From an uncultured Gammaproteobacteria bacterium (GTDB lineage Bacteria; Patescibacteriota; Microgenomatia; CAYXHB01; CAZYTL01): a stretch of 64,000 nt of DNA. The position numbers were made by a program, and so were the translations under genes. This document shows, piece by piece, positions 1 to 21,404 of this stretch. The notes beneath the pieces are model-generated. The model ran no database searches. It was not told the origin of the DNA and worked only from the letters and a program-made list of their open reading frames with translations. The stretch spans positions 4,455 through 68,454 of the forward strand of contig CAZYTL010000007.1 in NCBI GenBank assembly GCA_964650355.1, read 5' to 3'. Position 1 is the stretch's first letter; every line of letters begins with the position of its first letter.

Positions 1-589
1 GAAACAAAAGCATTTATGCGACCGGCTGGAACGATTCGTGACCGGTTCACTGGCTCATGTTTTCGACAGCCAAACCAATATCGAGTTGGACAACCGTCTG
101 GTCGTTTTTGATATCAAAGACTTAAACGAATCGTTACGGCAAATCATGATGTTAGTAGTGGCTAATTTTGTCCAGTCAGAGGTAAAAACTAACCCGCAGA
201 AAAGGATTCTGGTGATTGATGAAGGCTGGCTGCTTCTGGAGCATGAAGACAGCGCCAGGTTTATTGCCGGTCTGGTCCGCCGGGCCAGGAAACATTATCT
301 TGGTGTAACCATTATTGCCCAGCAAGCTAATGATTTCTTAAATCAGGAATACGGGCGGGCCATTGCTTCCCAATCCGCGTTGAGAATTCTAATGAGGCAG
401 GATACCACCACGATTAAGAACGTAGCCAGGGAGTTCCGGTTAAGTGAATATGAGCAGCATTTCCTGCTGACTTGTGACCGGGGAGAAGCCGTGATTATCG
501 CTGATCAGAACCACGTAGCGCTCAAAGTCGTGGCTTCGGAAAAAGAGCATCCTTTATTAACTACTGACCCCAGGGAAATATATATCTGA
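1..589 (+). CDS. T4SS/conjugation ATPase VirB4/TraC/TrbE-like, C-terminal fragment (5' end lies outside the window)
   Basis: The frame is open from the window start. It carries a Walker B-like LVIDEGW, then RRARKHYLGVTIIAQQANDF and a C-terminal region typical of VirB4-family ATPases. The stop overlaps the next start (ATGA). Confidence 0.6.
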   Translation, partial: KQKHLCDRLERFVTGSLAHVFDSQTNIELDNRLVVFDIKDLNESLRQIMMLVVANFVQSEVKTNPQKRILVIDEGWLLLEHEDSARFIAGLVRRARKHYLGVTIIAQQANDFLNQEYGRAIASQSALRILMRQDTTTIKNVAREFRLSEYEQHFLLTCDRGEAVIIADQNHVALKVVASEKEHPLLTTDPREIYI

Positions 590-592
590 TGA

Positions 593-1196
593 ATGAACAA
601 CTTCTTTTTAGCCTACAATCTCTGGTCTTTCCGTGATGAGTTAAAGCTGGTGCTTTATACGTTCCTACTGGTTTTGAGCTTACCGATTATTGCCGTGCTG
701 GTGATTACCAATGCCGGAATTCAGGAAGTCTCCGACGCTCTCGTATCAGTTAATACTCAGGCCCGCACCGTTCAGATCCTTAATCCTGCTACGGGGGAAG
801 TAGTTAAAGAAGTCAGTGGTGACTTTTTCTGGCCGGTGCAGGGTGTGATTACCCTGGAATTCGGACAATCAAGCGGCTACCAATTATTTCATACCGGAAT
901 TGATGTTGCTGACCCGGAAGGGGAAATAGGGGATCAGATTTATCCCTTTATGCCGGGTATGGTAATTTATTCAGGTGAAACTTCCTGGGGATACGGCAAG
1001 CACGTAGTCATTGATAACGGTGATAATATTTCATCAATCTATGCCCACTTAAATAAAATTTCAGTTGCAAAAGGGCAGGAGGTGACCATTAACCCCATTG
1101 GGTACTGAAGGCCAAACTGGCTGGGCCACCGGCCCCCACCTGCACTTTGAAATCCGAGTTTACGGAGTCCCGGTTAATCCAAGGGTATTTTTATAA
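593..1196 (+). pseudogene. M23 (LytM) family metallopeptidase with an apparent +1 frameshift near 1100
   Basis: ORF 593..1108 has an N-terminal TM helix and the HxxxD motif (FHTGIDVA), then ends ...INPIGY*. The +1 frame continues directly as [30 protein letters not shown], the canonical M23 C-terminal HxH motif, up to the stop at 1194-1196. One extra T after GGG around 1101 would explain the shift. Confidence 0.6.
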
Positions 1197-1217
1197 TGAA
1201 TTATTAACTGTTGGAGA

Positions 1218-2492
1218 CTATGGTAAGGGTGTAGCAAGAAAAATCTCAAAATCATTTCCGTCGAAACCTTGCCATACTATTTGGTTGTTGTCATTTAAGT
1301 AAGGAAAGGCATCGTTATAGATATTATCTGTCAATTGTATGTTTTCTGTTGATCCCAGTTCATGAGTAAATAGTTCAAAATCATTTTCCGGTGGAGTGGA
1401 TGGGTTCTCCCAGATTGACAAGCCAACATTATTCAGATACGATTTTTGCTCAGGTCCTTGAGTATCTGTTAACTGGGTGATATCTGTACCATCATAATAA
1501 AAGATTTCTCTGTCATTAGGATTCTCATTAATCCAGCTTTCCCATATCACATGACCTTGATTGTTAATTTTAGGGTTTGTGTCAGTATTGTTATTATTTG
1601 TGATCCTAGTTATAGAACTAGTTGAATAATTATAGTAATAGATTTCGCTATTCATAGCTCCATCTACCCAGTCCATCCAGACTAAATCTCCGTCATCATT
1701 GATACTTGGTTCATCCTTTAAGTAACCTGACAGAGTTATTTGTTTAATGTCCCCTCCGTCATAAAAATAGACTTGTTTGCCGCCTATCCAAACTATCTGT
1801 CCAGCTTCATTCAATCTTGGCAAATGATCGTATAAGCTATTGTTAGTAATTTGGTCAATAGTTCCATCGTTGTACAAGTAAATCTCGTTATCAACCGGGT
1901 TTGCTCCGCCTCTCCATACGATCTCCCTATTATCATTGAATGTCTTTATCGGATAGCTATTACTCCAATCAAAAGTGTCATTAAAGTCATTGTTTGTAAC
2001 TTGTACTATATTTTCAGACTCAGCAACGTAGAGATAGATTTCACTATCTGTGCCGTCAAAGTGCATCCAGGTAATATCACCTGGATTATTGATTTGAGGA
2101 AACCAATTGCCTGAATCATGTGTTATTTGAATGATCTTACCCTCATCATATAGGTAAATATCACCCGCACCGGAATTATTAAATGATCCCCAAACAACTT
2201 GTCCATTGTAATTTATTCGGGAGTATAAATCGTCTTCTGAATTATTGGTGAGTTGGCGCGTCCAATATTTTGTTCCTGCAAGTTTTTTATCAATTCCCGA
2301 AGCATGCTCCAATCCTCGAGGTGTTTTCTCTGACTTCCCAGCTCCTTCAACAAGCAATTTAATATTTTGTTCTATTGACTTAGAATTATTATTCTTTGGA
2401 GTAGCATAAATTGAACCTAAACCATTTGGTATAATTAATATTAAGGCGAAAATTGTAACTATGTGAACAGTTAATCTTAATGATAGCTTCAT
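1218..2492 (-). CDS. secreted PD40/TolB-like beta-propeller repeat protein
   Basis: N-terminal signal/TM (MKLSLRLTVHIVTIFALILII). About 7 tandem ~45-aa repeats of the form (D/N)xEIYLYdGgxIxQITnn...P.iNn.GqIVW, which resembles PD40 repeats. Low GC (about 33%). Confidence 0.5.
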   Translation of the reverse strand: MKLSLRLTVHIVTIFALILIIPNGLGSIYATPKNNNSKSIEQNIKLLVEGAGKSEKTPRGLEHASGIDKKLAGTKYWTRQLTNNSEDDLYSRINYNGQVVWGSFNNSGAGDIYLYDEGKIIQITHDSGNWFPQINNPGDITWMHFDGTDSEIYLYVAESENIVQVTNNDFNDTFDWSNSYPIKTFNDNREIVWRGGANPVDNEIYLYNDGTIDQITNNSLYDHLPRLNEAGQIVWIGGKQVYFYDGGDIKQITLSGYLKDEPSINDDGDLVWMDWVDGAMNSEIYYYNYSTSSITRITNNNNTDTNPKINNQGHVIWESWINENPNDREIFYYDGTDITQLTDTQGPEQKSYLNNVGLSIWENPSTPPENDFELFTHELGSTENIQLTDNIYNDAFPYLNDNNQIVWQGFDGNDFEIFLATPLP

Positions 2493-2584
2493 ATCTCGAC
2501 TACTTACAATTTACAACTAATAATTTATGTTTAGTGAGGTTTAATAACAAAATAACCTCTAGGAAGGCAACTTATACACTAATC

Positions 2585-5116
2585 TTATAATTTACCTTTA
2601 ATTGACTCAAGCAATTCCATTTGTTGATGTTGTAATCCCGCATCAAAAATTATTCGGTATTCAAAGTTCTTGTTTATCTCAGCAAATTCTCTGAAACCGA
2701 CTTCTTTTGCAAATACCTCGTCGAACAGTTCTTCCCGCTTGCCTTGGTATTGTTTTTTGTTTTGCTCGTAGGTGAGCCTTTCAGTATTTAGTTTTACCTC
2801 GATAACAATAAACCTACCTTTTGTGGTTTCAATCAAGAAGTCGGGGAAGTAGCGAGAAATGCGTTTTTCCCTTGGGTTCCAGTACTCGAAGAAAAAGTCG
2901 TTGTGAACTGCATCAGTTACACCGCCTGTAAAGTAAACATCAACTATCGCCTCATCTTCATCAAGCACTTCTCGAAGATGAGTAAATAGACTTTTTTCGT
3001 CTTTACTGTCAAAGTTGTAAGGATCAATATGAAAGCCTAATCTCCCCTTACCAGAGTCCTTTTTATAGACCACTAAGTCGTTTCTGTTTTGGGCAACGCT
3101 AATTTTGAATGGATACTGTTTAGTAAGCTCCAGCTCTTCTTCGATAATTTCAGTTTTTTCTTCATATTCATATGCTTTTGTCAGAATACTTTCGACAATA
3201 AAAGCAATTTGGGCCGGGTTTTTATTTACAAGGACAACTATCTCACCTCTTGAATAGTGGCCTAGTAATACTTTCTCTATAGCCAAACAAGGCAACAAAG
3301 TATAACGGTTGATAATGGCGACAATCTCATAAAAGGTAAAGTCACTTTTTGTTTCAAGAGTTTTTTTTGCGCCTGATCGAGTATATTGTGCTTTCTGCTG
3401 TTCGGATAGTAGTATCCCACTTTCTGCAATGTAAGGTAGATACTTGCTTGCTTTGAAGTTATCCCACTCTATTTTTATCCTTTCAGGTTTTTTAGTTGAG
3501 GCTGAAACAATTTCGGTACGTTTCTTTTTGACTGTGACCTTTTTCTTTTTCTCGACTGTGAGAGTATGTTCAATGTTTTTCTGCTCCTGATTACGAAGTT
3601 CTTCAATTGTAGTGGCGAAGTTATTCTTCAATTCTCTATCCAGTATTTTGTAATTTTCATCCGATAAGAAAATTGAGGCAACTGTTGAATTGTCACCAAT
3701 ACTTCTCAAGCATCTCGTCGAGGATTGAAGTACAAAAATAGCGCTTCTTGGTTTTCTATAAAGAGCACAAGACACTAGAGAGCGACAATTCCATCCCTCA
3801 GTTCCTTTTCCAACTAGTAGTATAAATTGTTTTTTGCTTTGAGGATTGTCAAGGGTTACAAATTCACCTTTACCTTCTTCTGCCTCGGTATGATATTCAA
3901 GCACTTTGTCTTGAGAGATGCCTTTCTCGGTTAGGATTTCTTCCAATTTTGGCCTAAGCTCTTTTTGTAAATCGGAAATGTTGGCAGCAAAAAAGGCAAT
4001 CTTAGGGAGTTTGTCTTCAAGCCTATTTTCGCCATATTCCTTCCAGAATTTGGAAATTACGTCCTCGATAAACTCATAAGATTTGACATTGCCATACTCG
4101 AAGAATCGCACTTGTTTTAGAATCCCTCGTTCAATACCAGGTTTGAGTCCGAAATGAAACACTACGTCAGCAATCATTTTGTTCTTGATATAGGGTGTGC
4201 CGGTAAGGTTGACTACACCGGTTAAAGGGGTTTTTCCTTCCTTGTGGATGTAGTTGATGGTGGTTTTAGTCTTTTTTAGTGTGCCTTCGAGAGTGGTACC
4301 AAATGAATGGTGAGCCTCGTCTACAAATACAATAAGGTTTGACAGTTGCCTGATAGACTGTAAGCGTCGATTCTCGATGGCTTTATTTTTGAGATAGCGT
4401 TCATCTCTAAATAGTTTTGCTTGTTTGTCATCGGCGTGTCTGGTTTTGAGGATTATCTTTTGAGAGTTGGAGACAATCACATTGTAGTTACCAATTGGTT
4501 GTAGAGGGGTTTCAGGAGTTTCCAGATAATGAAATTTAATATTCAACACTATGTTGAGATACTCTTTCGGTAATACCCTTGAATAATCAAAAGTTTTTAT
4601 CTCTTTAAGACTTTCGATTATAGTTGTATCTGGTGCGAAGATGAGTGCGTTTTTGCCAAACCGAGTGTCCTTTTCGTGGTGAAAAGAGAGTACGAAGTCA
4701 TAAAGCATCATTACCCCAGCTAGAATTGTCTTGCCAGCGCCCATGGTGAGAGCATAAACTTGGTTTGCGTAATCAAGCCCGTTGTATTGCTTATGTAGCA
4801 GGTCGGAAATCTTTTTTTCTTTGTCCTTGTCGTAGGCCAGTTTTAAGGCTTCTTTTTCACTAATCCCAAGTGAGAGTATAAGTTCAAGCTCATTAGTGAA
4901 GATTGATTTGACGACTTCAACTGTAGGTTTATTGCCAACTACTTCTTTGAGGTAAACATAGGTTTCAAAAGATTCAAGCTGTGGGGCATGAAGATAGCCT
5001 ATTTTCTTGATATGCCTCAGGATATTTAGTGTTTCTTTTTCTACATTGGGATAACCGGCTACTCGCCACTCACCAACTTTTTGTTGTATTGCCTGTAAGT
5101 ATGCATTGTCCATCAT
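2585..5116 (-). CDS. res: type III restriction enzyme Res subunit (SF2 helicase plus PD-(D/E)xK nuclease)
   Basis: Walker A MGAGKT and a DEAH box (VFVDEAHH). C-terminal PD..ExK motif (PDFLIETTKGRFIVIEVK). Sits immediately downstream of mod, with a 3-nt gap. Confidence 0.85.
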   Translation of the reverse strand: MMDNAYLQAIQQKVGEWRVAGYPNVEKETLNILRHIKKIGYLHAPQLESFETYVYLKEVVGNKPTVEVVKSIFTNELELILSLGISEKEALKLAYDKDKEKKISDLLHKQYNGLDYANQVYALTMGAGKTILAGVMMLYDFVLSFHHEKDTRFGKNALIFAPDTTIIESLKEIKTFDYSRVLPKEYLNIVLNIKFHYLETPETPLQPIGNYNVIVSNSQKIILKTRHADDKQAKLFRDERYLKNKAIENRRLQSIRQLSNLIVFVDEAHHSFGTTLEGTLKKTKTTINYIHKEGKTPLTGVVNLTGTPYIKNKMIADVVFHFGLKPGIERGILKQVRFFEYGNVKSYEFIEDVISKFWKEYGENRLEDKLPKIAFFAANISDLQKELRPKLEEILTEKGISQDKVLEYHTEAEEGKGEFVTLDNPQSKKQFILLVGKGTEGWNCRSLVSCALYRKPRSAIFVLQSSTRCLRSIGDNSTVASIFLSDENYKILDRELKNNFATTIEELRNQEQKNIEHTLTVEKKKKVTVKKKRTEIVSASTKKPERIKIEWDNFKASKYLPYIAESGILLSEQQKAQYTRSGAKKTLETKSDFTFYEIVAIINRYTLLPCLAIEKVLLGHYSRGEIVVLVNKNPAQIAFIVESILTKAYEYEEKTEIIEEELELTKQYPFKISVAQNRNDLVVYKKDSGKGRLGFHIDPYNFDSKDEKSLFTHLREVLDEDEAIVDVYFTGGVTDAVHNDFFFEYWNPREKRISRYFPDFLIETTKGRFIVIEVKLNTERLTYEQNKKQYQGKREELFDEVFAKEVGFREFAEINKNFEYRIIFDAGLQHQQMELLESIKGKL

Positions 5117-5119
5117 GAA

Positions 5120-7075
5120 TTAAGCCTTGACTGAAAATGTTTCAAAGTATTCTTCTCCCAGCACATCCACAATTTTGATGGCTACCCTGTAGGTTCCAGC
5201 CTTTTCGTAGGTGTAGTGGTAAGAGGCAGAAATAACTTCTTTTTTCTCGGGCAAGTCCATGATTTCAGCATTAAAGAGCTTACCGTCGTAATCTATATCG
5301 ATTGTTACACTGTCAATGATTTGCTTGAAATCTTCCACTTTTGCTTTGTCTTTTTTATCAATAATCTTTTCGTTCTCAAGCTCTAGTTTACGCATGAGAA
5401 TAGGAGAGTAGAATTCTTCGACGCTGACAGTTAGCTTTTTGTCTTTTACCTCTATCTCGATTTTTGCTTCAGGCTTTTGTTTGAAAATAAGATTCTTCTT
5501 GTCGTTGAGAATATCTCGGATAACTACTTTGACACCTGACTTGTTTTCTTTTTTGAGATAATCCTCGACATCAAGTTCTGCTCCAGAGCAAATGATAGTG
5601 ACGCCTTCTTCATAAATTTCCTCACCTTGTTTTTGTGTTGCTTTAACAGTAAAGCTATCTGTATTGTCATCTATATCTTTAAGTACTGTTTTTATATCGA
5701 GCTTGTTGAGAACCCTGTTAAGTGGCATGACTTTGACAAAGTTATTGTCGAGTGTTCCATCAAAAGCACCTCGCTTAATAGGTTCGACCCCGTACATTTC
5801 CATGACTATGTCCTTAGCCTCGATTTCATTTTTGAATATGTCGTATTCGTTGACATTCAAAATTTTGAAAGCTAGCAAGCCTTTGAAGTCATCTTTAATT
5901 AATTTCTTTCCGTTTGTTTTAAGTTGACTATCAATGATTTGAGCTAACCTTTTAGTGGTAGTTTGAATTGCACCAATGTTTATATCGCAACCAATCCATT
6001 TTCTTCCTAACTTTTGGGCAACAGCTAGAGTCGTACCACTTCCACAGAAACAATCCATTACTAAATCACCCGATTCACTCCCCATATTAATTATCCTTTC
6101 AAGCAGCGCTTCACGCTTTTGAGTCGGGTAACCTGTAGACTCTATTGCCTGAGAATTTATTGGTGAAATGTCTGTCCATACTGATTGTAATGGTAGTCCA
6201 GGCATTTCGTCTAAATACTTTTTAAGTCTTGGCATTCCGGTAGATGTATAGTAAAGGTGACCTTTTTTCTCAAAATCTTCCATCTTATCTTTTGTGTATC
6301 TCCATGCCCGCTTTATGCCCTTCCATTCATAAATGGGTCCTTGATCGCGTGGTGGTACACATGATTGGTCTTCAAACTTTCTACCGTCTTTATCTACTTT
6401 TTGATAATGGGTTTTGAGATACTCCTCAGAGTAGGGAATGTGAGTTTTTTTTAGCAAAGAATTTGGGCCGTTACCATAAAAGAAGATTGTGTCGTGCAGA
6501 TTACCTATGTTTTTGGCGTCAGAGTGGGCTGCTTGTCTTTTCCATATAACTTCCGAGATTAAAGACTCGGGTCCGAATATTTCATCAAGCAAGCAACGTA
6601 ATAAATAATTTTTATGATAATCACAATGTAGAACGAAAATTCCACGGTTTACGAGTAGTTCCCTCATTATTAGTAAACGCTCATACATAAATTGCAAATA
6701 TTCATCGTTTTCCCAAATGTCGGTATATTGCTTTTCTTCGAGAAGATTTTGTTGTTGGCCTTCAATTTTTTGACCTCTAATTTTCACCTTTTTTACATAG
6801 TCAGCTTTGCTGTCGAATGGTGGATCGATGTAAATAAGGTCAATTTCACCTCGATATTCTTTTAGAAGATGAGAAAGAACTTGCAGATTATCGCCCCAAA
6901 AAAGCTTGTTGAAATTTTTTGATTTTTTATCGCCATAGACCTCTTTTTCCTGAGCCGGGAAGTATTCCACCTTATCTAAAGGTTTTTTGCCTACCCATGA
7001 GAGCATGGGGCGTCCTTTTGCTTTTTGGATTTCGGACCTTGATGATTTTGTAAGTGTGTTTGTTGCTTTTGTCAT
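5120..7075 (-). CDS. mod: type III R-M DNA methyltransferase Mod (beta-class N6A/N4C MTase)
   Basis: Motif IV DLIYIDPPF precedes motif I FCGSGTTLAVAQKLGRKWIGCDIN, which is beta-class order. The size and a C-terminal extension are typical of Mod, and the mod-res gene order matches. Confidence 0.85.
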   Translation of the reverse strand: MTKATNTLTKSSRSEIQKAKGRPMLSWVGKKPLDKVEYFPAQEKEVYGDKKSKNFNKLFWGDNLQVLSHLLKEYRGEIDLIYIDPPFDSKADYVKKVKIRGQKIEGQQQNLLEEKQYTDIWENDEYLQFMYERLLIMRELLVNRGIFVLHCDYHKNYLLRCLLDEIFGPESLISEVIWKRQAAHSDAKNIGNLHDTIFFYGNGPNSLLKKTHIPYSEEYLKTHYQKVDKDGRKFEDQSCVPPRDQGPIYEWKGIKRAWRYTKDKMEDFEKKGHLYYTSTGMPRLKKYLDEMPGLPLQSVWTDISPINSQAIESTGYPTQKREALLERIINMGSESGDLVMDCFCGSGTTLAVAQKLGRKWIGCDINIGAIQTTTKRLAQIIDSQLKTNGKKLIKDDFKGLLAFKILNVNEYDIFKNEIEAKDIVMEMYGVEPIKRGAFDGTLDNNFVKVMPLNRVLNKLDIKTVLKDIDDNTDSFTVKATQKQGEEIYEEGVTIICSGAELDVEDYLKKENKSGVKVVIRDILNDKKNLIFKQKPEAKIEIEVKDKKLTVSVEEFYSPILMRKLELENEKIIDKKDKAKVEDFKQIIDSVTIDIDYDGKLFNAEIMDLPEKKEVISASYHYTYEKAGTYRVAIKIVDVLGEEYFETFSVKA

Positions 7076-7081
7076 AGTTTT

Positions 7082-7294
7082 TTATACCCTTGGTTCCTTT
7101 TTAAGGGCTACTTTGCAGTAAGGGCAAGTGTATCTCATCAACGTTAGATTTCTTTCACCCACATAATGAGTAGGGCAGGTCATTTCAAGGTCGAACAAAA
7201 GCCTCGTCCACTCCCATTCTTCCTCAACTGGTTCGTACATTTGTTCGATTGCTCGTAGCAATTCTTTAGTATCAATATCTGTATTAGCTAGCAT
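7082..7294 (-). CDS. small Zn-ribbon protein (CxxH...CPYC)
   Basis: The ORF track gives 7082..7324. The ATG at 7294 overlaps the upstream gene's stop (ATGCTAGCTAA), which suggests translational coupling. Two Cys/His pairs: TCPTHY and CPYC. Confidence 0.45.
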   Translation of the reverse strand: MLANTDIDTKELLRAIEQMYEPVEEEWEWTRLLFDLEMTCPTHYVGERNLTLMRYTCPYCKVALKKEPRV

Positions 7295-7463
7295 TTTTTT
7301 TGTACCTTTCGACAAAAGCATCAAAGTCTGCTTTTTTTATCCTGAACTGTTTTTCTACTTGGTAAGCCTTGAGTTTACCTGCCTGTATCCAGCGATAGAC
7401 GGTCATGTATGAGACTTTAAGTATTCTGGCAATGTCCTTTGGTGTCAAAAATTTTTCTTCCAT
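7284..7463 (-). CDS. helix-turn-helix protein, excisionase/MerR-like (AlpA/Xis HTH_17-type), 59 aa
   Basis: My own translation: MEEKFLTPKDIARILKVSYMTVYRWIQAGKLKAYQVEKQFRIKKADFDAFVERYKKNAS. It is below the ORF-track length cutoff. It ends in an A8 tract that separates it by one frame from the Zn-ribbon ORF. Confidence 0.5.
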   Translation of the reverse strand: MEEKFLTPKDIARILKVSYMTVYRWIQAGKLKAYQVEKQFRIKKADFDAFVERYKKNAS

Positions 7464-7537
7464 AGTTATCTCTTGTACAGAGTAACATTCTTTAACATTG
7501 ATTACAATAATGGTAAACTAGAATCAGCTTTTCCAGT

Positions 7538-9853
7538 GTGAAAATTATGGTAACTGTTAACGGTAGTCGAAAACTCAATCTAAACCAACCCCAAAGAGTG
7601 TTGGTAGCTATCGTATATCTTTTCTTGCTGGTAATTATTTTTTCTCTGCTGGGTGGTAGCTTCCGAGGATTCTTGTTCGATTCGAGTGTCGATTCGAGTA
7701 TTTTGTTTTATGCGGGGGCGTTCATGATAATACTTGGTGCATATATCGTTGAACCTTTTTTTACTAAGCCCTCAGATGCCATTGCCAACTCAACGGCAAC
7801 ACTAATTGCATTGGTTGGCCTGGCAAATAAACAAGCTTTCTATAGCTATGGGTGGATTTTCATAATATCCTTAGTGGTTTTATTAGCTAGTATTGTTTCG
7901 ATTCTTTTGAGAGAAACTACGAACGAATTCTGGAAGAAAGTGTCTAAAATCAGTTACTGGCTGGCAGTGAATCTTGGTAACTACAAAGTTATATTTTCTT
8001 TAGTTTATTTTTCTGCTGCGTATTCTTATTTTGGGAAAGTTGAAAACCTAATACCATTCATTACGATAATAACTTTTTGGATTTGTCTAACATTCTTCGA
8101 TGTGGTAGGGATAGCGATTGAAAAACTAAGTTTATTGTTAGCGATATTTAAAGGTGGTCGGATAAGTGAGTTAGGCCAGGCGATTGGGTGTGATAACCCA
8201 TTTTTGTATAAGGTAGAAATTGACTATTCTAAACATAAAAGACAGGAGGTTCAATATGGTGACATAGTAGCTATTGAAACAGGGTTAAATGTTGGCTCAA
8301 TTGGTATGATTGTTAGCTCGAGGTTTTTACTGAACAAAAAATGGTTAAGCATCTATCTTCTTAAAGATGATGACGACCAGGTGTTAAAGGTTGATCTTAG
8401 GAATTATAAGCTAATAACCGATGAAAAATCTATTTTTTCTAAGGAAAGTCTAGTTTACAGACTGAACATAAAGCAACTCCCAGATGAAATATCCAAGATG
8501 ATTAAAAAGAATGAGCTTTACCAAAATAAAGAAAATTTTATCGGGTTCGTGACGGTAGGGTCGGATATCAACACCATCAACTTCTCAATCTTGGGAGATG
8601 CTCAATCTCCTGAAAAACAGATTAGTGAAGGTAAAATTATTAAGGCATATATTTATGGCCAAGAAACGCTGTATCAGGTTATCAACGGAAATACACGCGA
8701 GGAACATTTAGAGAATTATGACAAGCATGGATTTACTGTTGGAGTCGCTCGCAAATTAGGTAAATACTTATTCGACAAGAAAGAGCTAGATGTAAGTAAG
8801 TGGATGCCGACAATTTATTCTCCTTTGTTTTTTGCGTATAACGAAGTCATCAACGAGAAGAGGCAAAAGGAAATAGCCCAACAGTCTATTGGTAGATTAC
8901 CTGGCACTAACCTGGAAATCCCCATAAAGGACATAAATACTCTGATTAGTCACAATACCGCAATATTGGGAATTTTGGGGATCGGAAAGTCATGTTTATC
9001 ATATGAGCTAATTATGAAGGTTACAAAGAAAGGTATAAAAGTTGTGTGTTTAGATATTACTAATGAATACGTAAGAGATCTTAAAAAGTACATAAATGAA
9101 GATAAAATAGCGTCAGATTATTCTAATGTGGTTAAGGGATTAAACGATTCTGAAGTAAAAATAGCTGATTCAAAGACCGAAGGTGGAAATGTTGATGTAT
9201 TTTATTCGTCGATTAAAAAAGAGTTAGAAAGTTTCATCGCAGATGACAATACTCTGATAACCATTATTAACGTTGATGAATTTAATGTTATAAAACAAGA
9301 AGAAAATGCTAAAAATAGACAAAAAAACGGTATATGGGAAATGTATGCACCGCATAATCAGGCGACAGTAGCAGAAAAAACCAGAATGATATGTGAGATA
9401 TTATTGTCATTAGCTATGAGTAGTGGATCATCAAATGAAGCTCGCTGTCTGATAGTGTTTGAAGAAGCACACTCGCTTATACCCGAGTGGAATTCTGTTT
9501 CATACGAGGGTGATAAAACAGCTACCAACGGCACAGCTAAAGTGATCCTACAAGGAAGAAAATATGGTTTAGGTAGTTTGGTGGTAACACAAAGGACAGC
9601 AAACGTTAGTAAAAGCATTCTTAACCAATGTAATACAGTTTTTGCTTTAAGAGTGTTTGATGATACTGGGAAAGAGTTTTTAAAGAATTATATCGGCGAG
9701 GATTATTCAAGTACATTGTCCACACTCGAGGAACGCAGAGCAGTAGCTATCGGCAAAGGATTGAAGTTGAAGCAACCAGTTATCATTCAACTTAATGATC
9801 GGGATTACTTGCTAGAATCTAAGCAAGATGGAGAGGAAAGTGATAATGACTGA
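7538..9853 (+). CDS. membrane-anchored HerA/DUF87-family (FtsK-HerA superfamily) ATPase
   Basis: About 6 N-terminal TM helices (aa 1-200), then a central soluble region. C-terminal ATPase with Walker A ILGILGIGKS, Walker B/DEAH-like LIVFEEAHSLIPE, and a GRKYGLGSLVVTQRTANVSKSILNQCNTVFALRV block characteristic of HerA/DUF87. Low GC. Confidence 0.6.
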   Translation: MKIMVTVNGSRKLNLNQPQRVLVAIVYLFLLVIIFSLLGGSFRGFLFDSSVDSSILFYAGAFMIILGAYIVEPFFTKPSDAIANSTATLIALVGLANKQAFYSYGWIFIISLVVLLASIVSILLRETTNEFWKKVSKISYWLAVNLGNYKVIFSLVYFSAAYSYFGKVENLIPFITIITFWICLTFFDVVGIAIEKLSLLLAIFKGGRISELGQAIGCDNPFLYKVEIDYSKHKRQEVQYGDIVAIETGLNVGSIGMIVSSRFLLNKKWLSIYLLKDDDDQVLKVDLRNYKLITDEKSIFSKESLVYRLNIKQLPDEISKMIKKNELYQNKENFIGFVTVGSDINTINFSILGDAQSPEKQISEGKIIKAYIYGQETLYQVINGNTREEHLENYDKHGFTVGVARKLGKYLFDKKELDVSKWMPTIYSPLFFAYNEVINEKRQKEIAQQSIGRLPGTNLEIPIKDINTLISHNTAILGILGIGKSCLSYELIMKVTKKGIKVVCLDITNEYVRDLKKYINEDKIASDYSNVVKGLNDSEVKIADSKTEGGNVDVFYSSIKKELESFIADDNTLITIINVDEFNVIKQEENAKNRQKNGIWEMYAPHNQATVAEKTRMICEILLSLAMSSGSSNEARCLIVFEEAHSLIPEWNSVSYEGDKTATNGTAKVILQGRKYGLGSLVVTQRTANVSKSILNQCNTVFALRVFDDTGKEFLKNYIGEDYSSTLSTLEERRAVAIGKGLKLKQPVIIQLNDRDYLLESKQDGEESDND

Positions 9854-10098
9854 GTTTAATCTATGTCATCGTATCGCAATGCTAAATCAGCTATAGACTT
9901 ATAGGGCCTAACTTAGATCAAACCTTTAATTATGCTGAACTAAGATCAACGCGTTGTTGGGTTGTTTCTATTGGTTCTTTATATAATATTGATCAGATAT
10001 TTATGTTTCTATCCCCAAACCAATATGGTTGTTAACTTAGGTGTCATAGATATGATATTGACTATTAGATTTAGACCTTTAAAGGATAATTTTATCGC

Positions 10099-10623
10099 AT
10101 GAGGGCAGAAATAATTCATAAACTTGAGAAATCTCTCTTATCATTTGATAGCGAAGCCGACGTTGTTTATATTCTAACTAGAATCGGTAAGATTCTTGAA
10201 TTTGATAATAAAGTCTCTGATTATCAAATTCTTTACTTTTATCGCAATTGGAGCGTACATGCCAAGTTAGATAAAAATAAGAAGAACAAATTTGTTAAAA
10301 ATTTTGTCGGAGAATTCATAAAAAATAAAAACTATCGAGATTCGGTACTCCGTCATGAATATTTCGTTAGTAAATTGAATAGCTTTTTAAAAGATTATTC
10401 TCTTCCTCAGTTAAGAAATGGAAAAAAGTTTTTAAAATTACTAAGAGAAATAATTGCCGATACTCCTATTATATTAGAAGGAAAAAACACAACTTATTCA
10501 ATAAGTCTAGATAAATCTGATAAAAAAAATGCTTCAAAGTCTTTCACTATCAAAGTGACAGCATTCCCGAATCCTGTTAAGATAAATTTTTCTGCTCCTC
10601 AGGTAACAGCACTTGGAAGGTAA
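10099..10623 (+). CDS. hypothetical lysine-rich protein (no recognisable domain)
   Basis: Co-oriented and downstream of the HerA-like gene, with an AAGGA RBS. Very AT-rich coding sequence. Confidence 0.4.
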   Translation: MRAEIIHKLEKSLLSFDSEADVVYILTRIGKILEFDNKVSDYQILYFYRNWSVHAKLDKNKKNKFVKNFVGEFIKNKNYRDSVLRHEYFVSKLNSFLKDYSLPQLRNGKKFLKLLREIIADTPIILEGKNTTYSISLDKSDKKNASKSFTIKVTAFPNPVKINFSAPQVTALGR

Positions 10624-10674
10624 AGAAAAAAACTAATACAAAACCTTTGCTTATACTCTTCCCTATTGATTTAG

Positions 10675-10950
10675 TTAATCGTCCCTGTCGTGGTTGTCTG
10701 AGAAGTCTTCTGCTTCCGTTATTTCAGGTTCGTCGTGTTGAGATTCCTCTTCTGACTCTTGTTTGATATTGATGAATTCGTTTTCCACTGTTTTCAAGCG
10801 GTCGCGGCAGTGTTTGATTAATGCATTTCCTGCTTTGAGTTTTTTCAATCCCTCATCCAGATCAATGTCTTCATTCTGAAACCATTGGTTGATTTGGTCC
10901 AGTTCCCTGATCGCTTCTGAAAAATTAAATTTTTTATCCGTGTCTGCCAT
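10675..10950 (-). CDS. xseB: exodeoxyribonuclease VII small subunit
   Basis: About 90 aa, helical, with an acidic C-terminus. Sits immediately downstream of xseA with a 2-nt gap. Confidence 0.8.
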   Translation of the reverse strand: MADTDKKFNFSEAIRELDQINQWFQNEDIDLDEGLKKLKAGNALIKHCRDRLKTVENEFINIKQESEEESQHDEPEITEAEDFSDNHDRDD

Positions 10951-10952
10951 AT

Positions 10953-12311
10953 TTAGCCTATTTTTTTAACTTGAGACTGGATGCCCCCTTCATATAATCT
11001 GATTCCGATTATATCATCAATCCGCACCTGTTTGGTTGACTTGACTACTTTTCCGCCCGCGTCTTTTACAATGCTGTAACCCTGTTTTAATTTATGCTGC
11101 GGATCCGATAAGTTGAGTAGCTGCTCGTGTTGGTTTACTTTCTTTACCAGTCCCGAATGCCAGTCCGCAAATCCCTGATACAAAGTGGTTTCTAATTTTC
11201 GGAGCTCCTTATGGGTTTCATTGATCCACCTTTGGTAAAGTTGGTAATTAAACACAAAATTTGCTTCAATCCGTTTGACTATATCCAGCAATTTACTGAA
11301 ACCACGGGATAAAGATTCACTGTAATTTTCAACAATTTGTTTCTGCCGGGAGAGGTGATGGCCGAAATTAGTGATCAGACTATTTTGGTGACTTGTTAGG
11401 GTAATCTTCATTTTTCCTATCCTGCCCATAAAAACTGTCGCCATGTGCCGTTCCGCTTCACCCACTTCTCTGACTACCGCGTCCCAATTGGCAGTCAGCA
11501 TTTCTCCCGCGTGAGTCGGTGTGGAAGCTCTGGTATCTGCCACTAGGTCTGCAATGGTAATATCCCGTTCATGGCCGACCGCAGATAGTACCGGAATCTT
11601 GGATCCATAGATGGCTTTGGCTACTTCCAAGGTATTAAATGCCTGCAGAGCTTCCAGGCTACCGCCACCTCTGGTAACTACCAACACATCAATTTCCGTA
11701 TTGTGTTCATTAAACCACTTAATCGCGTCAACTATATTATTAACTGCCTTTACCCCTTCGACTCTGGCATCATAAAAATTTACAGTTAATCCGTAATCAC
11801 CCAAGTGGGTCGTGAAGTCAGTAATTGCTGCTCCGGTTTGCGAGGTAATCAGTCCGATTTTTTCTACGAAGCGGGGCAAGGGTCGTTTGCGCTCTTCCTT
11901 AAAATAACCGGCCTGTTCCAGCTCGGTTTTTAATTTCTCAAACGCCTGTCTTAAAGCCCCTTCGCCGACCGGAATAATATATTCCGTCCGGAATGAAAAT
12001 CTGCCTTTGGGTTTATAGACTTCAGGATATCCGGTGACTTTCACTTCCATACCCTCTTCGAGTTCAATACCGATATTTCTCAGGGTAGATGTCCAGCAAA
12101 GACAATTTAAAACAGCGTCTTCGTCTTTGTCGCTCAGGGTAAAATATACAGCCCTGCCCGATTGGCCTACCTGGCTGATTTCTCCCTGAACCGTGGCCGA
12201 CAATTTTTGCAGGGACTGATTCACCAGGTCAAGATACTCACCGACACTAAACACTCTTTTAGTTTCTCCCTCGTCATTATTTCCGAATAAAAAGTCGTTT
12301 GTCATCACCAT
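10953..12311 (-). CDS. xseA: exodeoxyribonuclease VII large subunit
   Basis: N-terminal OB-fold, and the VVTRGGGSLEALQAFN motif typical of ExoVII large subunits. About 450 aa. Confidence 0.85.
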   Translation of the reverse strand: MVMTNDFLFGNNDEGETKRVFSVGEYLDLVNQSLQKLSATVQGEISQVGQSGRAVYFTLSDKDEDAVLNCLCWTSTLRNIGIELEEGMEVKVTGYPEVYKPKGRFSFRTEYIIPVGEGALRQAFEKLKTELEQAGYFKEERKRPLPRFVEKIGLITSQTGAAITDFTTHLGDYGLTVNFYDARVEGVKAVNNIVDAIKWFNEHNTEIDVLVVTRGGGSLEALQAFNTLEVAKAIYGSKIPVLSAVGHERDITIADLVADTRASTPTHAGEMLTANWDAVVREVGEAERHMATVFMGRIGKMKITLTSHQNSLITNFGHHLSRQKQIVENYSESLSRGFSKLLDIVKRIEANFVFNYQLYQRWINETHKELRKLETTLYQGFADWHSGLVKKVNQHEQLLNLSDPQHKLKQGYSIVKDAGGKVVKSTKQVRIDDIIGIRLYEGGIQSQVKKIG

Positions 12312-12594
12312 TAGTTTAAGTTTTGTAATCCAAATTATACCAAGACTGATCAGGTTTAATGATTTCAGTTTGGATTTACAAACTACCTTAATTGTTATAA
12401 ATTGAATCAGAGCGGCCTACCTTCTGCAACAGCTTCAAAGAACAACGGTTCATCTGGCGAGTTGCAGGTTTACAACTTCCAAACAGACTCCAAAGTCCGT
12501 TTTACGAAATCTTAGAATTAATCTATTCTTGTCGGTCCTTTATCTCCATGAGATCTTGTTGACAAACTACTTCCTTTAGATTTATATTATTAGT

Positions 12595-12865
12595 CAAATT
12601 GGTTTGTTTAACTTTCTGGATTTAGTGCGATTAAATCAGTAGTTAAATTGGTTTGGCCGAGGGAAACCAAGGCCAACGCACTAGGCTCTAGAAGCCCAAG
12701 GTCAAATCAATTTAATTGCTGATTTTTTATATAAGATACATACTCCTGCGAAGCTTCAAAATAACGTAAGTTTAACTGAAGAGACCGCGGCTACGGGGAG
12801 GCTGTATTTAAAAAATCAAAGAAGGTGAGGCCGCCACTAATGAGATGGGCGGCCTTTGTGTTTTG
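12595..12865 (+). ncRNA. candidate small non-coding RNA of about 270 nt (identity unknown)
   Basis: Bounded by a sigma70-like promoter (TTGACA 12559-12564, 17-18 nt spacer, TATATT 12583-12588) and an intrinsic terminator at 12827-12865. No ORF of 60 aa or more and no convincing RBS-ORF inside. Confidence 0.3.
12827..12865 (+). terminator. rho-independent terminator (GAGGCCGCC-loop-GGCGGCCTT followed by TGTGTTTTG)
   Basis: A 9-bp GC-rich stem followed by a T-rich tract. An A/T tract also lies on the opposite side, so it could act in both directions. Confidence 0.5.
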
Positions 12866-13127
12866 AGGCTCTTTGACAGTAAAAATGGGTTTTCGGGGTG
12901 ACCCGAATCCATCCTTCGGGTCGCTTTTACCAACCAAATAGGATGGTAGAAAGGACCAGAGACATGGTAATCACCATTCGATTCCATAAAATACCCCGAA
13001 TCATAGAGATTCAGGGTAAATTGTGGAGGGTACTAAATTCGGGTTTACTCGTTCCAGCGACGTAAACCTGAATGGGTGACCTTCGGGTCACCCCAGAAAG
13101 TCCATTTTTGAATAATATTTTAGAAGT

Positions 13128-13199
13128 GCCACCGTAGGTCAATGGATAGACCAGTTCCGTGCTAAGGTTCAGATGGCGGTTCGATTCCACCCGGTGGCA
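13128..13199 (+). tRNA. tRNA of uncertain isotype (loop GUGCUAA gives anticodon GCU, but with class-I architecture and an imperfect anticodon stem)
   Basis: Acceptor stem GCCACCG/CGGTGGC, canonical D-arm GGTC-AATGGATA-GACC, and T-arm GGCGG-TTCGATT-CCACC with one C.A mismatch. Discriminator A, and no encoded CCA. The anticodon stem GTTCC/GGTTC has two U.U mismatches. Confidence 0.5.
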
Positions 13200-13479
13200 T
13201 CTCTAAGATATTACTTAAAACCTACTCTACAATGTCGCCTCCGTTTGCGGTCAGCAGTAAATGGAAGATGATCGAAGTTAAATTGTTAGTCTGAGCAGCT
13301 TTCATACTTCCAGACTGGCACAATATATACAAGGTTGTCAAGGGGATTGACAATAAGTATTTTAAGATCTATATAATAACTCAAAAAATGTTCATTTACA
13401 AGGTTTATAAGTAATTAATTTCAAAAACGCTATCCTAAAAGGAGCTATAATAGCGAAAAATAATTATTAGAGTAAAAAA

Positions 13480-13686
13480 TCAACATCCGATACATGAAGT
13501 AAGAGGATGCTTTTTTAACTTTTCGATGGGTATCAACTGCCTTAGAAGAAGGTTTACCAATTTCCTATTAAAATCCCTCTCTTCTTTACTTAACTTTTGA
13601 ACTCTAGATTCAATCGTCGGTGAAACAATAGAAGCATTTCCCGGAGTCTTTGTTTTTAACGTCTGATTATCTGATTTAATTGTCAT
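13480..13686 (-). CDS. hypothetical small protein (68 aa)
   Basis: Overlaps the upstream ORF by 11 nt, suggesting coupling. Third gene in a PLD-led operon. Confidence 0.35.
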   Translation of the reverse strand: MTIKSDNQTLKTKTPGNASIVSPTIESRVQKLSKEERDFNRKLVNLLLRQLIPIEKLKKHPLTSCIGC

Positions 13687-13864
13687 CTCTATTATTCTTT
13701 TTCTCTTCTCTGACTACCTTATGGGCAATCAGATGAGCCAGAGTCTGCATGTTGCCCAGCATTTCGATGGCATGTTCACGGGTGGCGTTTTCCGGATCGG
13801 TTTGTTTGAGAAATCTGATCACGCTTTGAATATCTTTTTCTCTTTGGTCCTGATCTTCGTTCAT
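13676..13864 (-). CDS. hypothetical small protein (62 aa)
   Basis: Lies between the PLD-like gene and the 68-aa ORF, on the same strand. Confidence 0.35.
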   Translation of the reverse strand: MNEDQDQREKDIQSVIRFLKQTDPENATREHAIEMLGNMQTLAHLIAHKVVREEKKNNRDDN

Positions 13865-13891: not shown

Positions 13892-14407
13892 TTAGAGAAA
13901 CTTCTCTAATTTTAAAAATTCCACCATCTCCCGGGCATAATATGCACCTGCAATCCGCCGCATAATCTCCCGGCTGTTGGTCTGCGACAAAATATTTAAG
14001 CTGCCTTCCCATAATATTTTTCTGTCTATAATAGCCAGTTTACGGTGGTGGTTGTTTGTGGTGGCGATCACCTGGACGCCGATGCTTTCAAACCATCTGA
14101 TCTCCTGTTCTGCTTGGAGGGCATATTCTTCAATGTGCTTGTCAGGATCGCGGGTGATTACGTAGACTTTAACCCCATTAGCTATCAATCTACTGAAAAC
14201 GGAAGCCAATTGTTTCATCCGGGAAGTTGAAATATACGGACTTTCAATAATCACCTCATGTTTGCAGGTCTTCAGATCCTTTACAAATTGTTGATAAAAC
14301 CCCTTTTCATCATAGAGTCTAGAATCAAATTGCGGTAAAGATTGAGGTGAAGAAAAGAGGTTAAACATACTACTCGGTTGAATCAATAACTTTAACCTGA
14401 CCGTCAA
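13892..14407 (-). CDS. phospholipase D-family (single HKD motif) nuclease-like protein, Nuc-like
   Basis: HxKx4D motif in NHHRKLAIIDRK. About 170 aa, matching the size of single-HKD Nuc endonucleases that dimerise. Confidence 0.65.
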   Translation of the reverse strand: MTVRLKLLIQPSSMFNLFSSPQSLPQFDSRLYDEKGFYQQFVKDLKTCKHEVIIESPYISTSRMKQLASVFSRLIANGVKVYVITRDPDKHIEEYALQAEQEIRWFESIGVQVIATTNNHHRKLAIIDRKILWEGSLNILSQTNSREIMRRIAGAYYAREMVEFLKLEKFL

Positions 14408-16658: not shown

Positions 16659-17879
16659 ATGGTGAGTAAATCTCGGGTGACGCTTTGGCAACGGATTGGC
16701 TGGGTGGTAATCCTGGCTTGGGGAGTGCAAGTGTTGATCAATTACGGATATTTGTTTGGACGCTATGATTATCAATTACTGGATTTTCGCTCTTTTTACA
16801 CGGCGGCCCAAATTCTGATCAGACAGCCCAAAGATTTGTATAATTTTGATGTCCAAACAGCATATCAACAACCTCTTTTGTCAGGGAAAGAGGAGATCAC
16901 GGACCATGAACTGATCCCGTTTTTAAATCCCCCAATATTTTTGCTGCCGTTTTTACCTTTGACTTTAATTTCTTTTGATGCTGCTTATCTGGTGGCGGTA
17001 ACAGCCTGTCTGCTGGTGGGAGGGCTAGGGGTTTGGTTGTTGGTTAAAAAGATATTTCCTCTGCCGAATAAAAAGTTGCTGATAGCCGTGGGCCTGATAT
17101 TAACTTTTGCTTCGTCGTTTTCCACCATTGCGCTGACTCAGAGTTCTTTTTTTAGTCTATTAATTTGGGTGTTGGTTTACTATCTGCTCACTCACAGACG
17201 GGAAGGGTGGGCGGGTTTATTGGCCAGCGGGCTGCTATATAAACCGCAGTTGGGCATGGTGTTGTTTATCTATTTGTTGTGGACAAAAAATCGACAGCCA
17301 ATTAAGGGCCTAATGATAGGCGGAGTAGCTATGGGGCTGATTTCTTTATTGATGACCCAAGGCGCCTTATGGACCTGGCTGGCCTCATTGCCTGATTTTG
17401 TTAACCACTTGGAAACCGGACCCACTTCAAGGATCAGTTGGGCCGGCTTTTTTGCCCAACTCAATGAGTATTTTCCAGTCTTGCCCACAGTCTGGGTGTC
17501 GGTGATTGTTTCGCTGGTGACTGTAATTTGGACCATAAAGCAAATTAAGGAAATCGAACCGGCCAATAAAGTTTTCCCGCTCGCCTATTCGGCAATGATA
17601 TTAACTACTCTGTTGGCTGGATATCACGTATTAAGCCACGAACTGGTGCTGTTGTTTTTTCCTTTGGTTTATTTTGTTAAACAATACTACTCTACTAAAT
17701 TGTTAATCATCATCGGTGTCGGTTGGGGACTATCGTTGCTGTCGATTTTCAATTTTCTCACGCCGTGGTATCCGGGACGGATGCCCTTTTTGCCTACTAT
17801 TTATCTGGTGATGCTGCTGTACTTAATGATGAGATGGTTAAATAAACAGAGGATAAAAGTCGCCCAATATGCCGGTTAA
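16659..17879 (+). CDS. polytopic membrane protein, paralog 1 of 4 (GT87/DUF2029-like candidate GT-C glycosyltransferase)
   Basis: Shares with its paralogs DFRSFYTAAQIL..LY.FDVQ..YQ..LL and PFLNPPIFLLPFLPL and GLLASGLLYKPQLGMVLFIYLL. About 11 TM helices. Confidence 0.5.
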   Translation: MVSKSRVTLWQRIGWVVILAWGVQVLINYGYLFGRYDYQLLDFRSFYTAAQILIRQPKDLYNFDVQTAYQQPLLSGKEEITDHELIPFLNPPIFLLPFLPLTLISFDAAYLVAVTACLLVGGLGVWLLVKKIFPLPNKKLLIAVGLILTFASSFSTIALTQSSFFSLLIWVLVYYLLTHRREGWAGLLASGLLYKPQLGMVLFIYLLWTKNRQPIKGLMIGGVAMGLISLLMTQGALWTWLASLPDFVNHLETGPTSRISWAGFFAQLNEYFPVLPTVWVSVIVSLVTVIWTIKQIKEIEPANKVFPLAYSAMILTTLLAGYHVLSHELVLLFFPLVYFVKQYYSTKLLIIIGVGWGLSLLSIFNFLTPWYPGRMPFLPTIYLVMLLYLMMRWLNKQRIKVAQYAG

Positions 17880-21394: not shown

Positions 21395-21404
21395 TCAGTT
21401 TTAG

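Follow-up and report, generated by a model that had tools for sequence, protein, structure and literature searches.

How did a compact block of low-GC genes come to lie between a VirB4/M23 peptidase gene pair and the exonuclease genes xseBA in a Patescibacteria chromosome, and what might these genes do? The block occupies positions 1197–10674 of the 64-kb stretch of contig CAZYTL010000007.1 that was analysed (hereafter the window, to which all positions refer unless stated otherwise). In our reading, it is very likely a horizontally acquired, mosaic defence island with at least four modules of separate histories: a gene for a putatively secreted repeat protein, a type III-like restriction-modification operon, a stand-alone gene for a membrane-anchored HerA-like ATPase, and an orphan gene encoding a protein of 174 amino acids (aa). 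A preliminary description of the locus had treated it as one acquired element; the assignment as foreign defence DNA stands, but at least four modules, each evolving separately, take the place of the single element.

The composition of the block sets it apart from its surroundings. Between positions 1218 and 10623 the GC content is 36.3%, compared with 43.9% in the remainder of the window, and 9,406-bp stretches lying fully to the right of the island all contain 42.5–45.5% GC, none lower. Measured over 500 bp, the GC fraction steps down on the left from 0.45 (751–1250) to 0.35 (1251–1750) and recovers on the right from 0.316 (10251–10750) to 0.426 (11001–11500). GC content at third codon positions (GC3) ranges from 0.229 to 0.400 in the six island genes measured (mean 0.336), against 0.478 (standard deviation 0.047) in the other 57 open reading frames (ORFs) of the window; it also varies among the island modules, from 0.23 in the 174-aa gene to 0.37 in the gene for the restriction subunit Res. 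After normalisation for base composition, deviations in tetranucleotide usage correlate with those in the rest of the window at r = 0.34–0.61 in 4.7-kb segments inside the island and at 0.84–0.93 everywhere to the right of 11.7 kb. The low-GC interval that had been estimated by eye at 1218–10623 is borne out by all three measures, with both sliding-window GC and tetranucleotide usage departing inside the island and no sign of uniform composition. The atypical composition is real and far beyond chance.

Two other sources of such a contrast were weighed. A chimeric join of reads from an AT-richer organism would leave a block of this kind, and the window does come from an uncultured-organism assembly and does show an abrupt shift in composition. 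However, host-like sequence flanks the block on both sides (46% GC on the left, 44% on the right), such that two precise joins would be needed, both of which would have to hit short spacers between intact convergent genes. Moreover, the block is heterogeneous, with GC3 values of 0.23–0.40 and different nearest relatives for each module, a pattern that fits a mosaic island better. An assembly artefact is therefore very improbable. We consider it hardly credible that the genes are native and owe their low GC content to gene-specific protein constraints: several island proteins are indeed rich in Lys, Asn or Ile, and AT-richness is also seen in non-coding DNA outside the island, but GC3, which is largely free of protein constraints, lies approximately 3 standard deviations below the window mean for all island genes. 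The base-corrected tetranucleotide signature departs as well, and relatives in other genomes are far closer for the island genes than for the core gene.

These relatives provide the second line of evidence. In a large protein database, the best non-self matches of Res, from metagenome relatives, are 91, 84, 83 and 81% identical. With the same search tool, those of the HerA-like protein are 71, 71 and 67% identical, and those of the flanking core protein XseA only 58, 52, 51 and 50%. Because the island genes have much closer relatives than XseA with the same tool, a foreign origin is supported. The HerA-like protein also has relatives of approximately 48–54% identity in Bacteroidota (Gramella, Flagellimonas and Flavivirga) and in many candidate-phyla-radiation lineages. 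At the DNA level (blastn), positions 2601–6071 are 81% identical to an unrelated metagenome contig (L019 in our numbering of comparison loci), and positions 2599–6130, 6608–7031 and 7280–7519 are 75–76% identical to a second contig (L020); neither contig has a further blastn match to the rest of the window.

The collections searched contain no close relative of the host; the best full-length XseA matches there are 37–40% identical in GTDB genomes and JGI metagenomes and 58% identical in the large protein database. Among GTDB species representatives, the XseA matches are Saccharibacteria relatives at 37–38% identity; the named matches in the large protein database belong to Patescibacteria and WWE3. 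These matches place the host in the candidate phyla radiation. In the xseAB-bearing contigs compared (L023, with XseA 58% identical; L021, 50%; L001, L006 and L008, 38–40%), the genes beyond xseB are unrelated, and none carries island genes, VirB4 or M23 next to xseB. The island is thus not conserved in syntenic position across these relatives. Together, the composition, the closer relatives of the island genes and their absence at the nearest xseAB loci support the earlier proposal of horizontally acquired defence DNA. The features of the island and its flanks are collected in Table 1.

Table 1. Features of the low-GC island and its flanks, with the recombinase module found on related contigs
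Feature	Position	Strand	Evidence and remarks
VirB4-like conjugative type IV secretion ATPase, C-terminal part	2–589	+	Left flank, outside island; Pfam P-loop_TraG 3.4e-12
M23 peptidase gene, frameshifted	593–1196	+	Left flank; Pfam Peptidase_M23 3e-14, profile positions 2–64 of 96 only
Left junction, 21-bp spacer between convergent genes	1197–1217		Sequence and GC step
424-aa protein with N-terminal hydrophobic signal or anchor	1218–2492	-	Hydrophobic segment at residues 3–21; GC3 0.318
Restriction-modification module (HTH, small ORF, Mod, Res, upstream control region)	2599–7519	-	blastn homology to L019/L020
Res subunit, 843 aa: superfamily 2 (SF2) helicase-type ATPase and C-terminal PD-(D/E)xK motif	2585–5116	-	Pfam ResIII 7.6e-6
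Mod subunit, 651 aa: beta-class N6/N4 DNA methyltransferase	5120–7075	-	Pfam N6_N4_Mtase 4.9e-44
70-aa ORF (MLANTDID...) with CxxH...CxxC motif	7082–7294	-	ORF translation
Helix-turn-helix (HTH) protein, 59 aa, excisionase/HTH_17 family, first gene of operon	7284–7463	-	TIGR01764 6.1e-16
Membrane-anchored HerA-like ATPase, 771 aa	7538–9853	+	Pfam DUF87 1e-8; PADLOC HerA 4.8e-27
174-aa protein	10099–10623	+	Lowest GC of the island, 29.5%; GC3 0.229
Right junction, 51-bp spacer between convergent genes	10624–10674		Sequence and GC recovery
xseB	10675–10950	-	Right flank, outside island; Pfam Exonuc_VII_S 3.5e-12; GC3 0.457
xseA	10953–12311	-	Right flank, outside island; Pfam Exonuc_VII_L 4.5e-77; GC3 0.453
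DUF5659/serine-recombinase module (other contigs)	L020 9678–13340; L024/L025 1–2248; L017 14837–16531; L019 5042–6561 (in part)		

The restriction-modification module comprises a minus-strand operon in the order HTH gene, 70-aa ORF, mod and res, with 3 bp between mod and res. Its DNA homology to the two metagenome contigs, which delimits it as a discrete, transferable unit, stops 14 bp from the res stop codon. Mod has a variable central target-recognition region (approximately residues 156–315) and a C-terminal extension of approximately 270 aa. It matches the PADLOC MTase_III models (down to 5.8e-61), with an MTase_II model scoring higher (7.6e-73), and aligns over its N-terminal part with EcoP15I Mod (4zcf_A, 1.5e-18). 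Within mod, DNA similarity to L020 is lost only at 6131–6607 (approximately residues 156–315), the expected place of a variable target-recognition domain. In Res, the motifs G126xGKT130, D266EAH269, T305GTP308 and P758D759...E773xK775 are invariant in 30 homologues. The N-terminal 300 aa match the NCBIfam model for BPTD_3080 restriction endonuclease (1.3e-21), and the C-terminus has a weak Pfam match to DUF1064. Res itself has no PADLOC match; REase_III is matched weakly by 8 of the 30 homologues, with a best E value of 0.003. Res and Mod, listed earlier as a type III system, are confirmed by their Pfam families. We call the system type III-like: Mod, the architecture and the gene order fit, and the very divergent Res is at most a putative homologue of characterised type III enzymes.

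The small genes at the head of the operon had been described as an HTH/zinc-ribbon pair, and both are present. The HTH protein is probably a transcriptional controller of the operon; it also has a sub-threshold match to MAD1 of the MADS defence system (41.9 bits against a cut-off of 80). The same HTH_17-Mod-Res order is found in L020. The 70-aa ORF, for which the family search gave only a weak match to a SprT zinc-ribbon region, fills an insertion of approximately 205 bp between the HTH gene and mod; L020 lacks this ORF, and there the HTH stop codon overlaps the mod start. At the other end of the operon, the two related contigs have a further gene that overlaps the end of res (L019 3746–4621; L020 7643–8515) and encodes a 290-aa protein with weak NucS_C/DUF5655 matches. 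This gene is 74% identical between the two contigs and is missing from the window.

Turning to the HerA-like protein, its gene is divergent from the restriction-modification operon; a GTG start gives the 771-aa form, and an ATG at 7547 gives 768 aa. It had been listed as an ATPase motor. The HerA-like ATPase is confirmed, with the correction that a complete HerA is present and carries a fused membrane domain. The AlphaFold2 model (predicted local distance difference test, pLDDT, 80.9) places eight or nine helices at residues 17–204, in the membrane domain, beta-barrel domains at approximately 211–433 and a RecA-type ATPase at approximately 440–760; four segments of the protein are strongly hydrophobic. 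The top 50 Foldseek matches, with E values from about 1e-14 to 1e-11, consist exclusively of HerA chains, among them archaeal HerA, HerA-NurA, SIR2-HerA and DUF4297-HerA, and the top 20 align over approximately 450–600 columns at E ~1e-14. An alignment of 43 homologues shows conservation of Walker A (G478ILGIGKS485), of Walker B (V640FEEAH645) and of a loop motif in the membrane domain, EPFFTKPSDAIANS, in which E72, F75 and P78 are invariant. The membrane domain has no Pfam match among eight homologues. NCBIfam anti-phage HerA models reach approximately 63 bits against cut-offs of 800–850 and cover the ATPase core only, and there are weak matches to CedD (NCBIfam, 1.2e-8, at the Walker A region) and mad8 (1.4e-8, on the ATPase core). 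As modelled, the protein joins a complete HerA to a multi-helix membrane domain that belongs to no known family.

Proteins of this kind form a family of hundreds of members (at least 460), with approximately 45–70% identity across phyla; they are common in Patescibacteria and also occur in Bacteroidota, Campylobacterota and Alphaproteobacteria. Neither the membrane domain nor the full architecture is covered by a model in Pfam, NCBIfam or PADLOC, and a literature search returned no described membrane-anchored HerA defence gene.

The neighbourhoods of the homologues suggest a function. In L013, the HerA homologue overlaps the end of a gene for a 1201-aa Eco57I/MmeI-type methyltransferase and is followed by GmrSD and PDDEXK genes. 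In L014/L015, genes for an HpaII methylase, HpaII endonuclease and Vsr precede the homologue, and PIF1 helicase follows. L017 encodes type I HsdR, GmrSD and PIN-TPR proteins within 10 kb upstream, DUF2779 directly upstream and a serine recombinase downstream. On an Arcobacter plasmid (L018), hsdS/SLATT and hsdR of a type I operon enclose the homologue. In Microgenomates (L024/L025), HTH_17 and RhuM genes are followed by an HsdR-like gene and a methyltransferase-S fusion gene, and the homologue starts 7 bp after these two. Finally, on an Aminobacter plasmid (L026), a homologue that likewise has the membrane domain is flanked by an AbiE pair on one side and two reverse transcriptases on the other. 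With the window included, defence neighbourhoods are present at seven of eight independent loci, six of them with restriction-modification genes. The homologues share no conserved partner gene, since the downstream positions are taken by GmrSD, PIF1, an RNase_H_2-like protein, an RNA-binding protein, reverse transcriptase and unknowns; neither SIR2 nor DUF4297 domains were found in the island or beside the seven homologous loci. No match to the HerA protein that would indicate a phage origin was found in 50,697 phage records or IMG/VR contigs.

The genes for these homologues lie below the GC content of their flanks in most other hosts (L013, L014, L017 and the Gramella locus L016, the last at 30.1% against 44.7% and 35.0%), which suggests recent transfer of the HerA gene in many lineages. 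The copy on the uniformly AT-rich Arcobacter plasmid, which is not lower, is an exception to this comparison, from which L026 is excluded. In other Patescibacteria contigs, a recurring mobile module flanks the related defence modules; it encodes a DUF5659 protein, small ORFs and one or both of a small and a large serine recombinase, and has no homologue in the window.

The main rival to a defence reading of the membrane HerA is that the protein is a DNA-transfer motor of mobile elements, a translocase that moves double-stranded DNA as a single protein, akin to the membrane-bound, FtsK-like TraB of Streptomyces plasmids or to archaeal CedD, and came to stand beside restriction-modification genes through shared islands. 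The HerA/FtsK superfamily does include membrane-bound DNA pumps, and the weak CedD match is in keeping with this; the high conservation of the gene across phyla indicates frequent transfer, serine recombinases occur near the homologues in L017 and L024/L025, and a motor of this kind would be compatible with the lack of a conserved partner. However, in three loci the gene is part of a restriction-modification transcriptional unit (overlapping the methyltransferase gene in L013, starting 7 bp downstream of one in L024, and flanked by hsdS and hsdR in L018), and no relaxase or replication genes accompany the homologues. Moreover, the sole full-length plasmid copy, that of Arcobacter, is carried by a plasmid typed as non-mobilizable, and the fold matches are all to HerA proper, including anti-phage HerA complexes, with none to FtsK or TraB. 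We regard a transfer motor as an improbable explanation.

The membrane HerA is instead a candidate new defence gene. Tentatively, and as one possibility, we propose that the 771-aa protein is a widely transferred single-gene defence module that combines a HerA hexamer motor with a multi-pass membrane domain and operates alongside restriction-modification of any type (I, II, IIG or III), by DNA capture or as a membrane effector.

Two island genes remain. The 424-aa gene lies 92 bp beyond res, outside the restriction-modification homology block. Its product contains repeated units of the form '(D/N)xEI(Y/F)xY...Q(I/V/L)T(N/D)' and gives weak matches to the TolB propeller (6.6e-5; 22 bits against a cut-off of 343) and to beta-propeller repeats; no Pfam (E ≤ 0.01) or PADLOC match was obtained. 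It is probably a secreted beta-propeller-like repeat protein. The PD40 label attached to it earlier is unsupported by any Pfam match, and the propeller-like repeat remains plausible. The 174-aa ORF, previously listed as unknown, is present and belongs to an uncharacterised family of 379 cluster representatives (E ≤ 1e-3; best 40% identical) with no Pfam or PDB match, whose profile finds nothing in any fetched locus. Neither these two genes nor that of the HerA-like protein has a counterpart in L019 or L020.

Of the flanking genes, the VirB4-like ORF is open from base 2 and runs off the start of the window. Its composition is host-like (GC 46.7%, GC3 0.527), and plasmid genes carrying the annotation 'VirB4-like conjugal transfer ATPase, CD1110 family' match it at approximately 37% identity. 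The M23 gene that follows has a +1 frameshift at about position 1106: its ORF stops at 1106–1108 and the next frame carries on to 1196, separating the zinc-ligand motif HxxxD, before the shift, from HxH (GPHLHFE), after it. The site is not a homopolymer run, and the gene is either a pseudogene or affected by a sequencing error. The left boundary had been placed at this disrupted gene. The gene is indeed frameshifted, but the shift, located 90 bp within the gene, does not represent the insertion scar. Promoter and terminator scans gave counts equal to the shuffled expectation.

Given this left flank, the island may be cargo at one end of a larger integrative conjugative element, whose type IV secretion backbone would extend leftwards beyond the window and whose right end would fall at 10624–10674, next to xseB; the defence genes would have come in with this element or been added to it. 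VirB4 followed by a peptidoglycan hydrolase is the usual gene order in conjugative transfer modules, and the window has a Gram-positive-type VirB4 of the CD1110 family, approximately 37% identical to genes of conjugative plasmids, followed by such a hydrolase, whose frameshift would be expected in a decaying element. In L017, moreover, a HerA homologue is found no more than 10 kb from a serine recombinase and a large M23 protein. Against this, VirB4 and M23 are host-like in composition (GC 45–47%, GC3 0.48–0.53), unlike the island, and the window shows neither a relaxase nor an integrase nor an attachment repeat. Moreover, Saccharibacteria-like genomes commonly contain resident gene clusters for type IV secretion. 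A conjugative element of this kind is on balance unlikely; it is compatible with a mosaic defence island and would supply the missing mechanism of acquisition.

To the right of xseBA, several features were recorded in their own right. The ORF-free interval 12312–13126 contains, at 12770–13126 (+) and directly 5' of a tRNA gene, a segment with a very stable predicted RNA structure (minimum free energy -147.7 kcal/mol over 357 nt; z = -9.5 against shuffles, -8.7 on the other strand) that includes several GC-rich tetraloop hairpins. It matches nothing in Rfam, whether at the gathering score or at E ≤ 1, and neither the rest of the window nor the fetched loci contain a second copy; as folded in silico, it may be an undescribed structured RNA. 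The adjacent gene at 13127–13201 (+) is assigned as tRNA-Ser(GCT) by ARAGORN (Rfam tRNA, 48.1 bits); at 75 nt it is without a long variable arm, which is unusual for a bacterial serine tRNA. Just past it, an AT-rich stretch (13251–13750, 32.6% GC) contains two short ORFs, which adjoin a gene at 13892–14407 (-) for a 171-aa PLD-like protein (PLDc_2, 3.5e-11) of the size of Nuc-type nucleases. Further on, 16659–22640 (+) holds tandem GT87-family glycosyltransferase paralogues, four of which have Pfam matches, with one 369-aa ORF between them that has none.

Several observations weigh against reading the locus as an acquired defence island, or the membrane HerA as a defence protein. Concerning acquisition, no ORF of 1–14.5 kb contains an integrase, recombinase or transposase domain, the whole 64 kb has no serine-recombinase homologue, and a search for direct or inverted repeats linking the junctions returned only short, chance-like matches, with no standout repeat at 1197–1217 or 10624–10674, in agreement with the preliminary description, which had noted neither an integrase nor obvious flanking direct repeats. 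There is no tRNA at a junction, the nearest (13127–13201) being 2.5 kb from the island, beyond xseBA. The nearest XseA relatives are only 50–58% identical and show no synteny past xseAB, hence no empty site can be defined. Concerning defence, the 424-aa repeat protein and the 174-aa ORF are without a demonstrable defence link. Res gave no sequence match to the PDB, by single sequence or by profile, and its structure model (pLDDT 64), with generic SF2 helicase fold matches only, is too poor to serve as a fold test. The defence-system models recognise only the generic HerA ATPase region of the HerA-like protein. Finally, the defence role of the membrane HerA is drawn from only eight neighbourhoods, one of which, in Gramella (L016, HerA homologue at 10001–12256), has no defence gene nearby.

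If the locus is a defence island, its parts could act as follows. Inferring from the type III family, Mod would methylate an asymmetric site through its variable central region, the Mod-Res complex would use the Res ATPase for communication between unmethylated sites, and the Res PD-(D/E)xK domain would cut incoming unmethylated DNA, with the HTH protein presumably timing expression of the operon. By analogy with HerA structures, the membrane HerA would form a membrane-embedded, hexameric, DNA-dependent ATPase ring, and its recurrent defence-gene neighbourhoods suggest that it would act as a defence factor at the membrane. Speculatively, it could capture or hold entering foreign DNA, or its membrane domain could replace a separate SIR2 or DUF4297 effector.

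The island itself is a routine example of defence-gene traffic, and shows small-genome Patescibacteria exchanging restriction modules at high identity (81% at the DNA level) with unrelated community members. Like known defence islands, it is a compact cluster of restriction-modification and accessory genes with atypical composition, patchy distribution and relatives closer than those of core genes. It differs from them in having no integrase, tRNA junction or direct repeats, in containing restriction-modification as its sole recognised defence system and in belonging to a small-genome host.

Compared with the type III system EcoP15I (PDB 4ZCF), the operon likewise places mod before res and encodes a beta-class Mod with a variable central region and a Res with SF2 motifs and a C-terminal PD-(D/E)xK. 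Unlike EcoP15I, its Res has no sequence match to EcoP15I Res or to any solved structure, an HTH gene heads the operon, and a zinc-ribbon ORF of 70 aa is inserted ahead of mod. In L019 and L020, which carry the module's closest relatives, res is followed by the fourth, NucS_C/DUF5655-like gene that the window lacks.

The MADS system resembles the locus in combining a methyltransferase self/non-self module with an HTH gene and a HerA/FtsK-type P-loop ATPase, and the weak MAD1 and mad8 matches point in the same direction. The detection model for MADS requires MAD6, MAD7 and MAD8 (bioRxiv 10.1101/2023.03.30.534895). Membership was rejected: MAD6 and MAD7 are absent, and the MAD1 and mad8 matches are far below family level and reflect generic HTH and P-loop similarity. 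Capture of entering DNA by HerA/FtsK proteins has been proposed for DndFGH-like and BREX-related loci (PMC10853773, PMC12839542); unlike those systems, the island contains none of the other components.

The membrane HerA is most closely comparable with SIR2-HerA, DUF4297-HerA and archaeal HerA-NurA, which are its best structural matches (E ~1e-14) and with which it shares the beta-barrel and the RecA-type ATPase with intact Walker motifs. Whereas those proteins are found with a SIR2, DUF4297 or NurA partner, the window protein has no such partner gene and, unlike known HerA systems, carries a fused N-terminal membrane domain of approximately 200 residues. If the proposed defence role is correct, the membrane HerA would add to the HerA-scaffold theme a membrane-bound form made of a single polypeptide.

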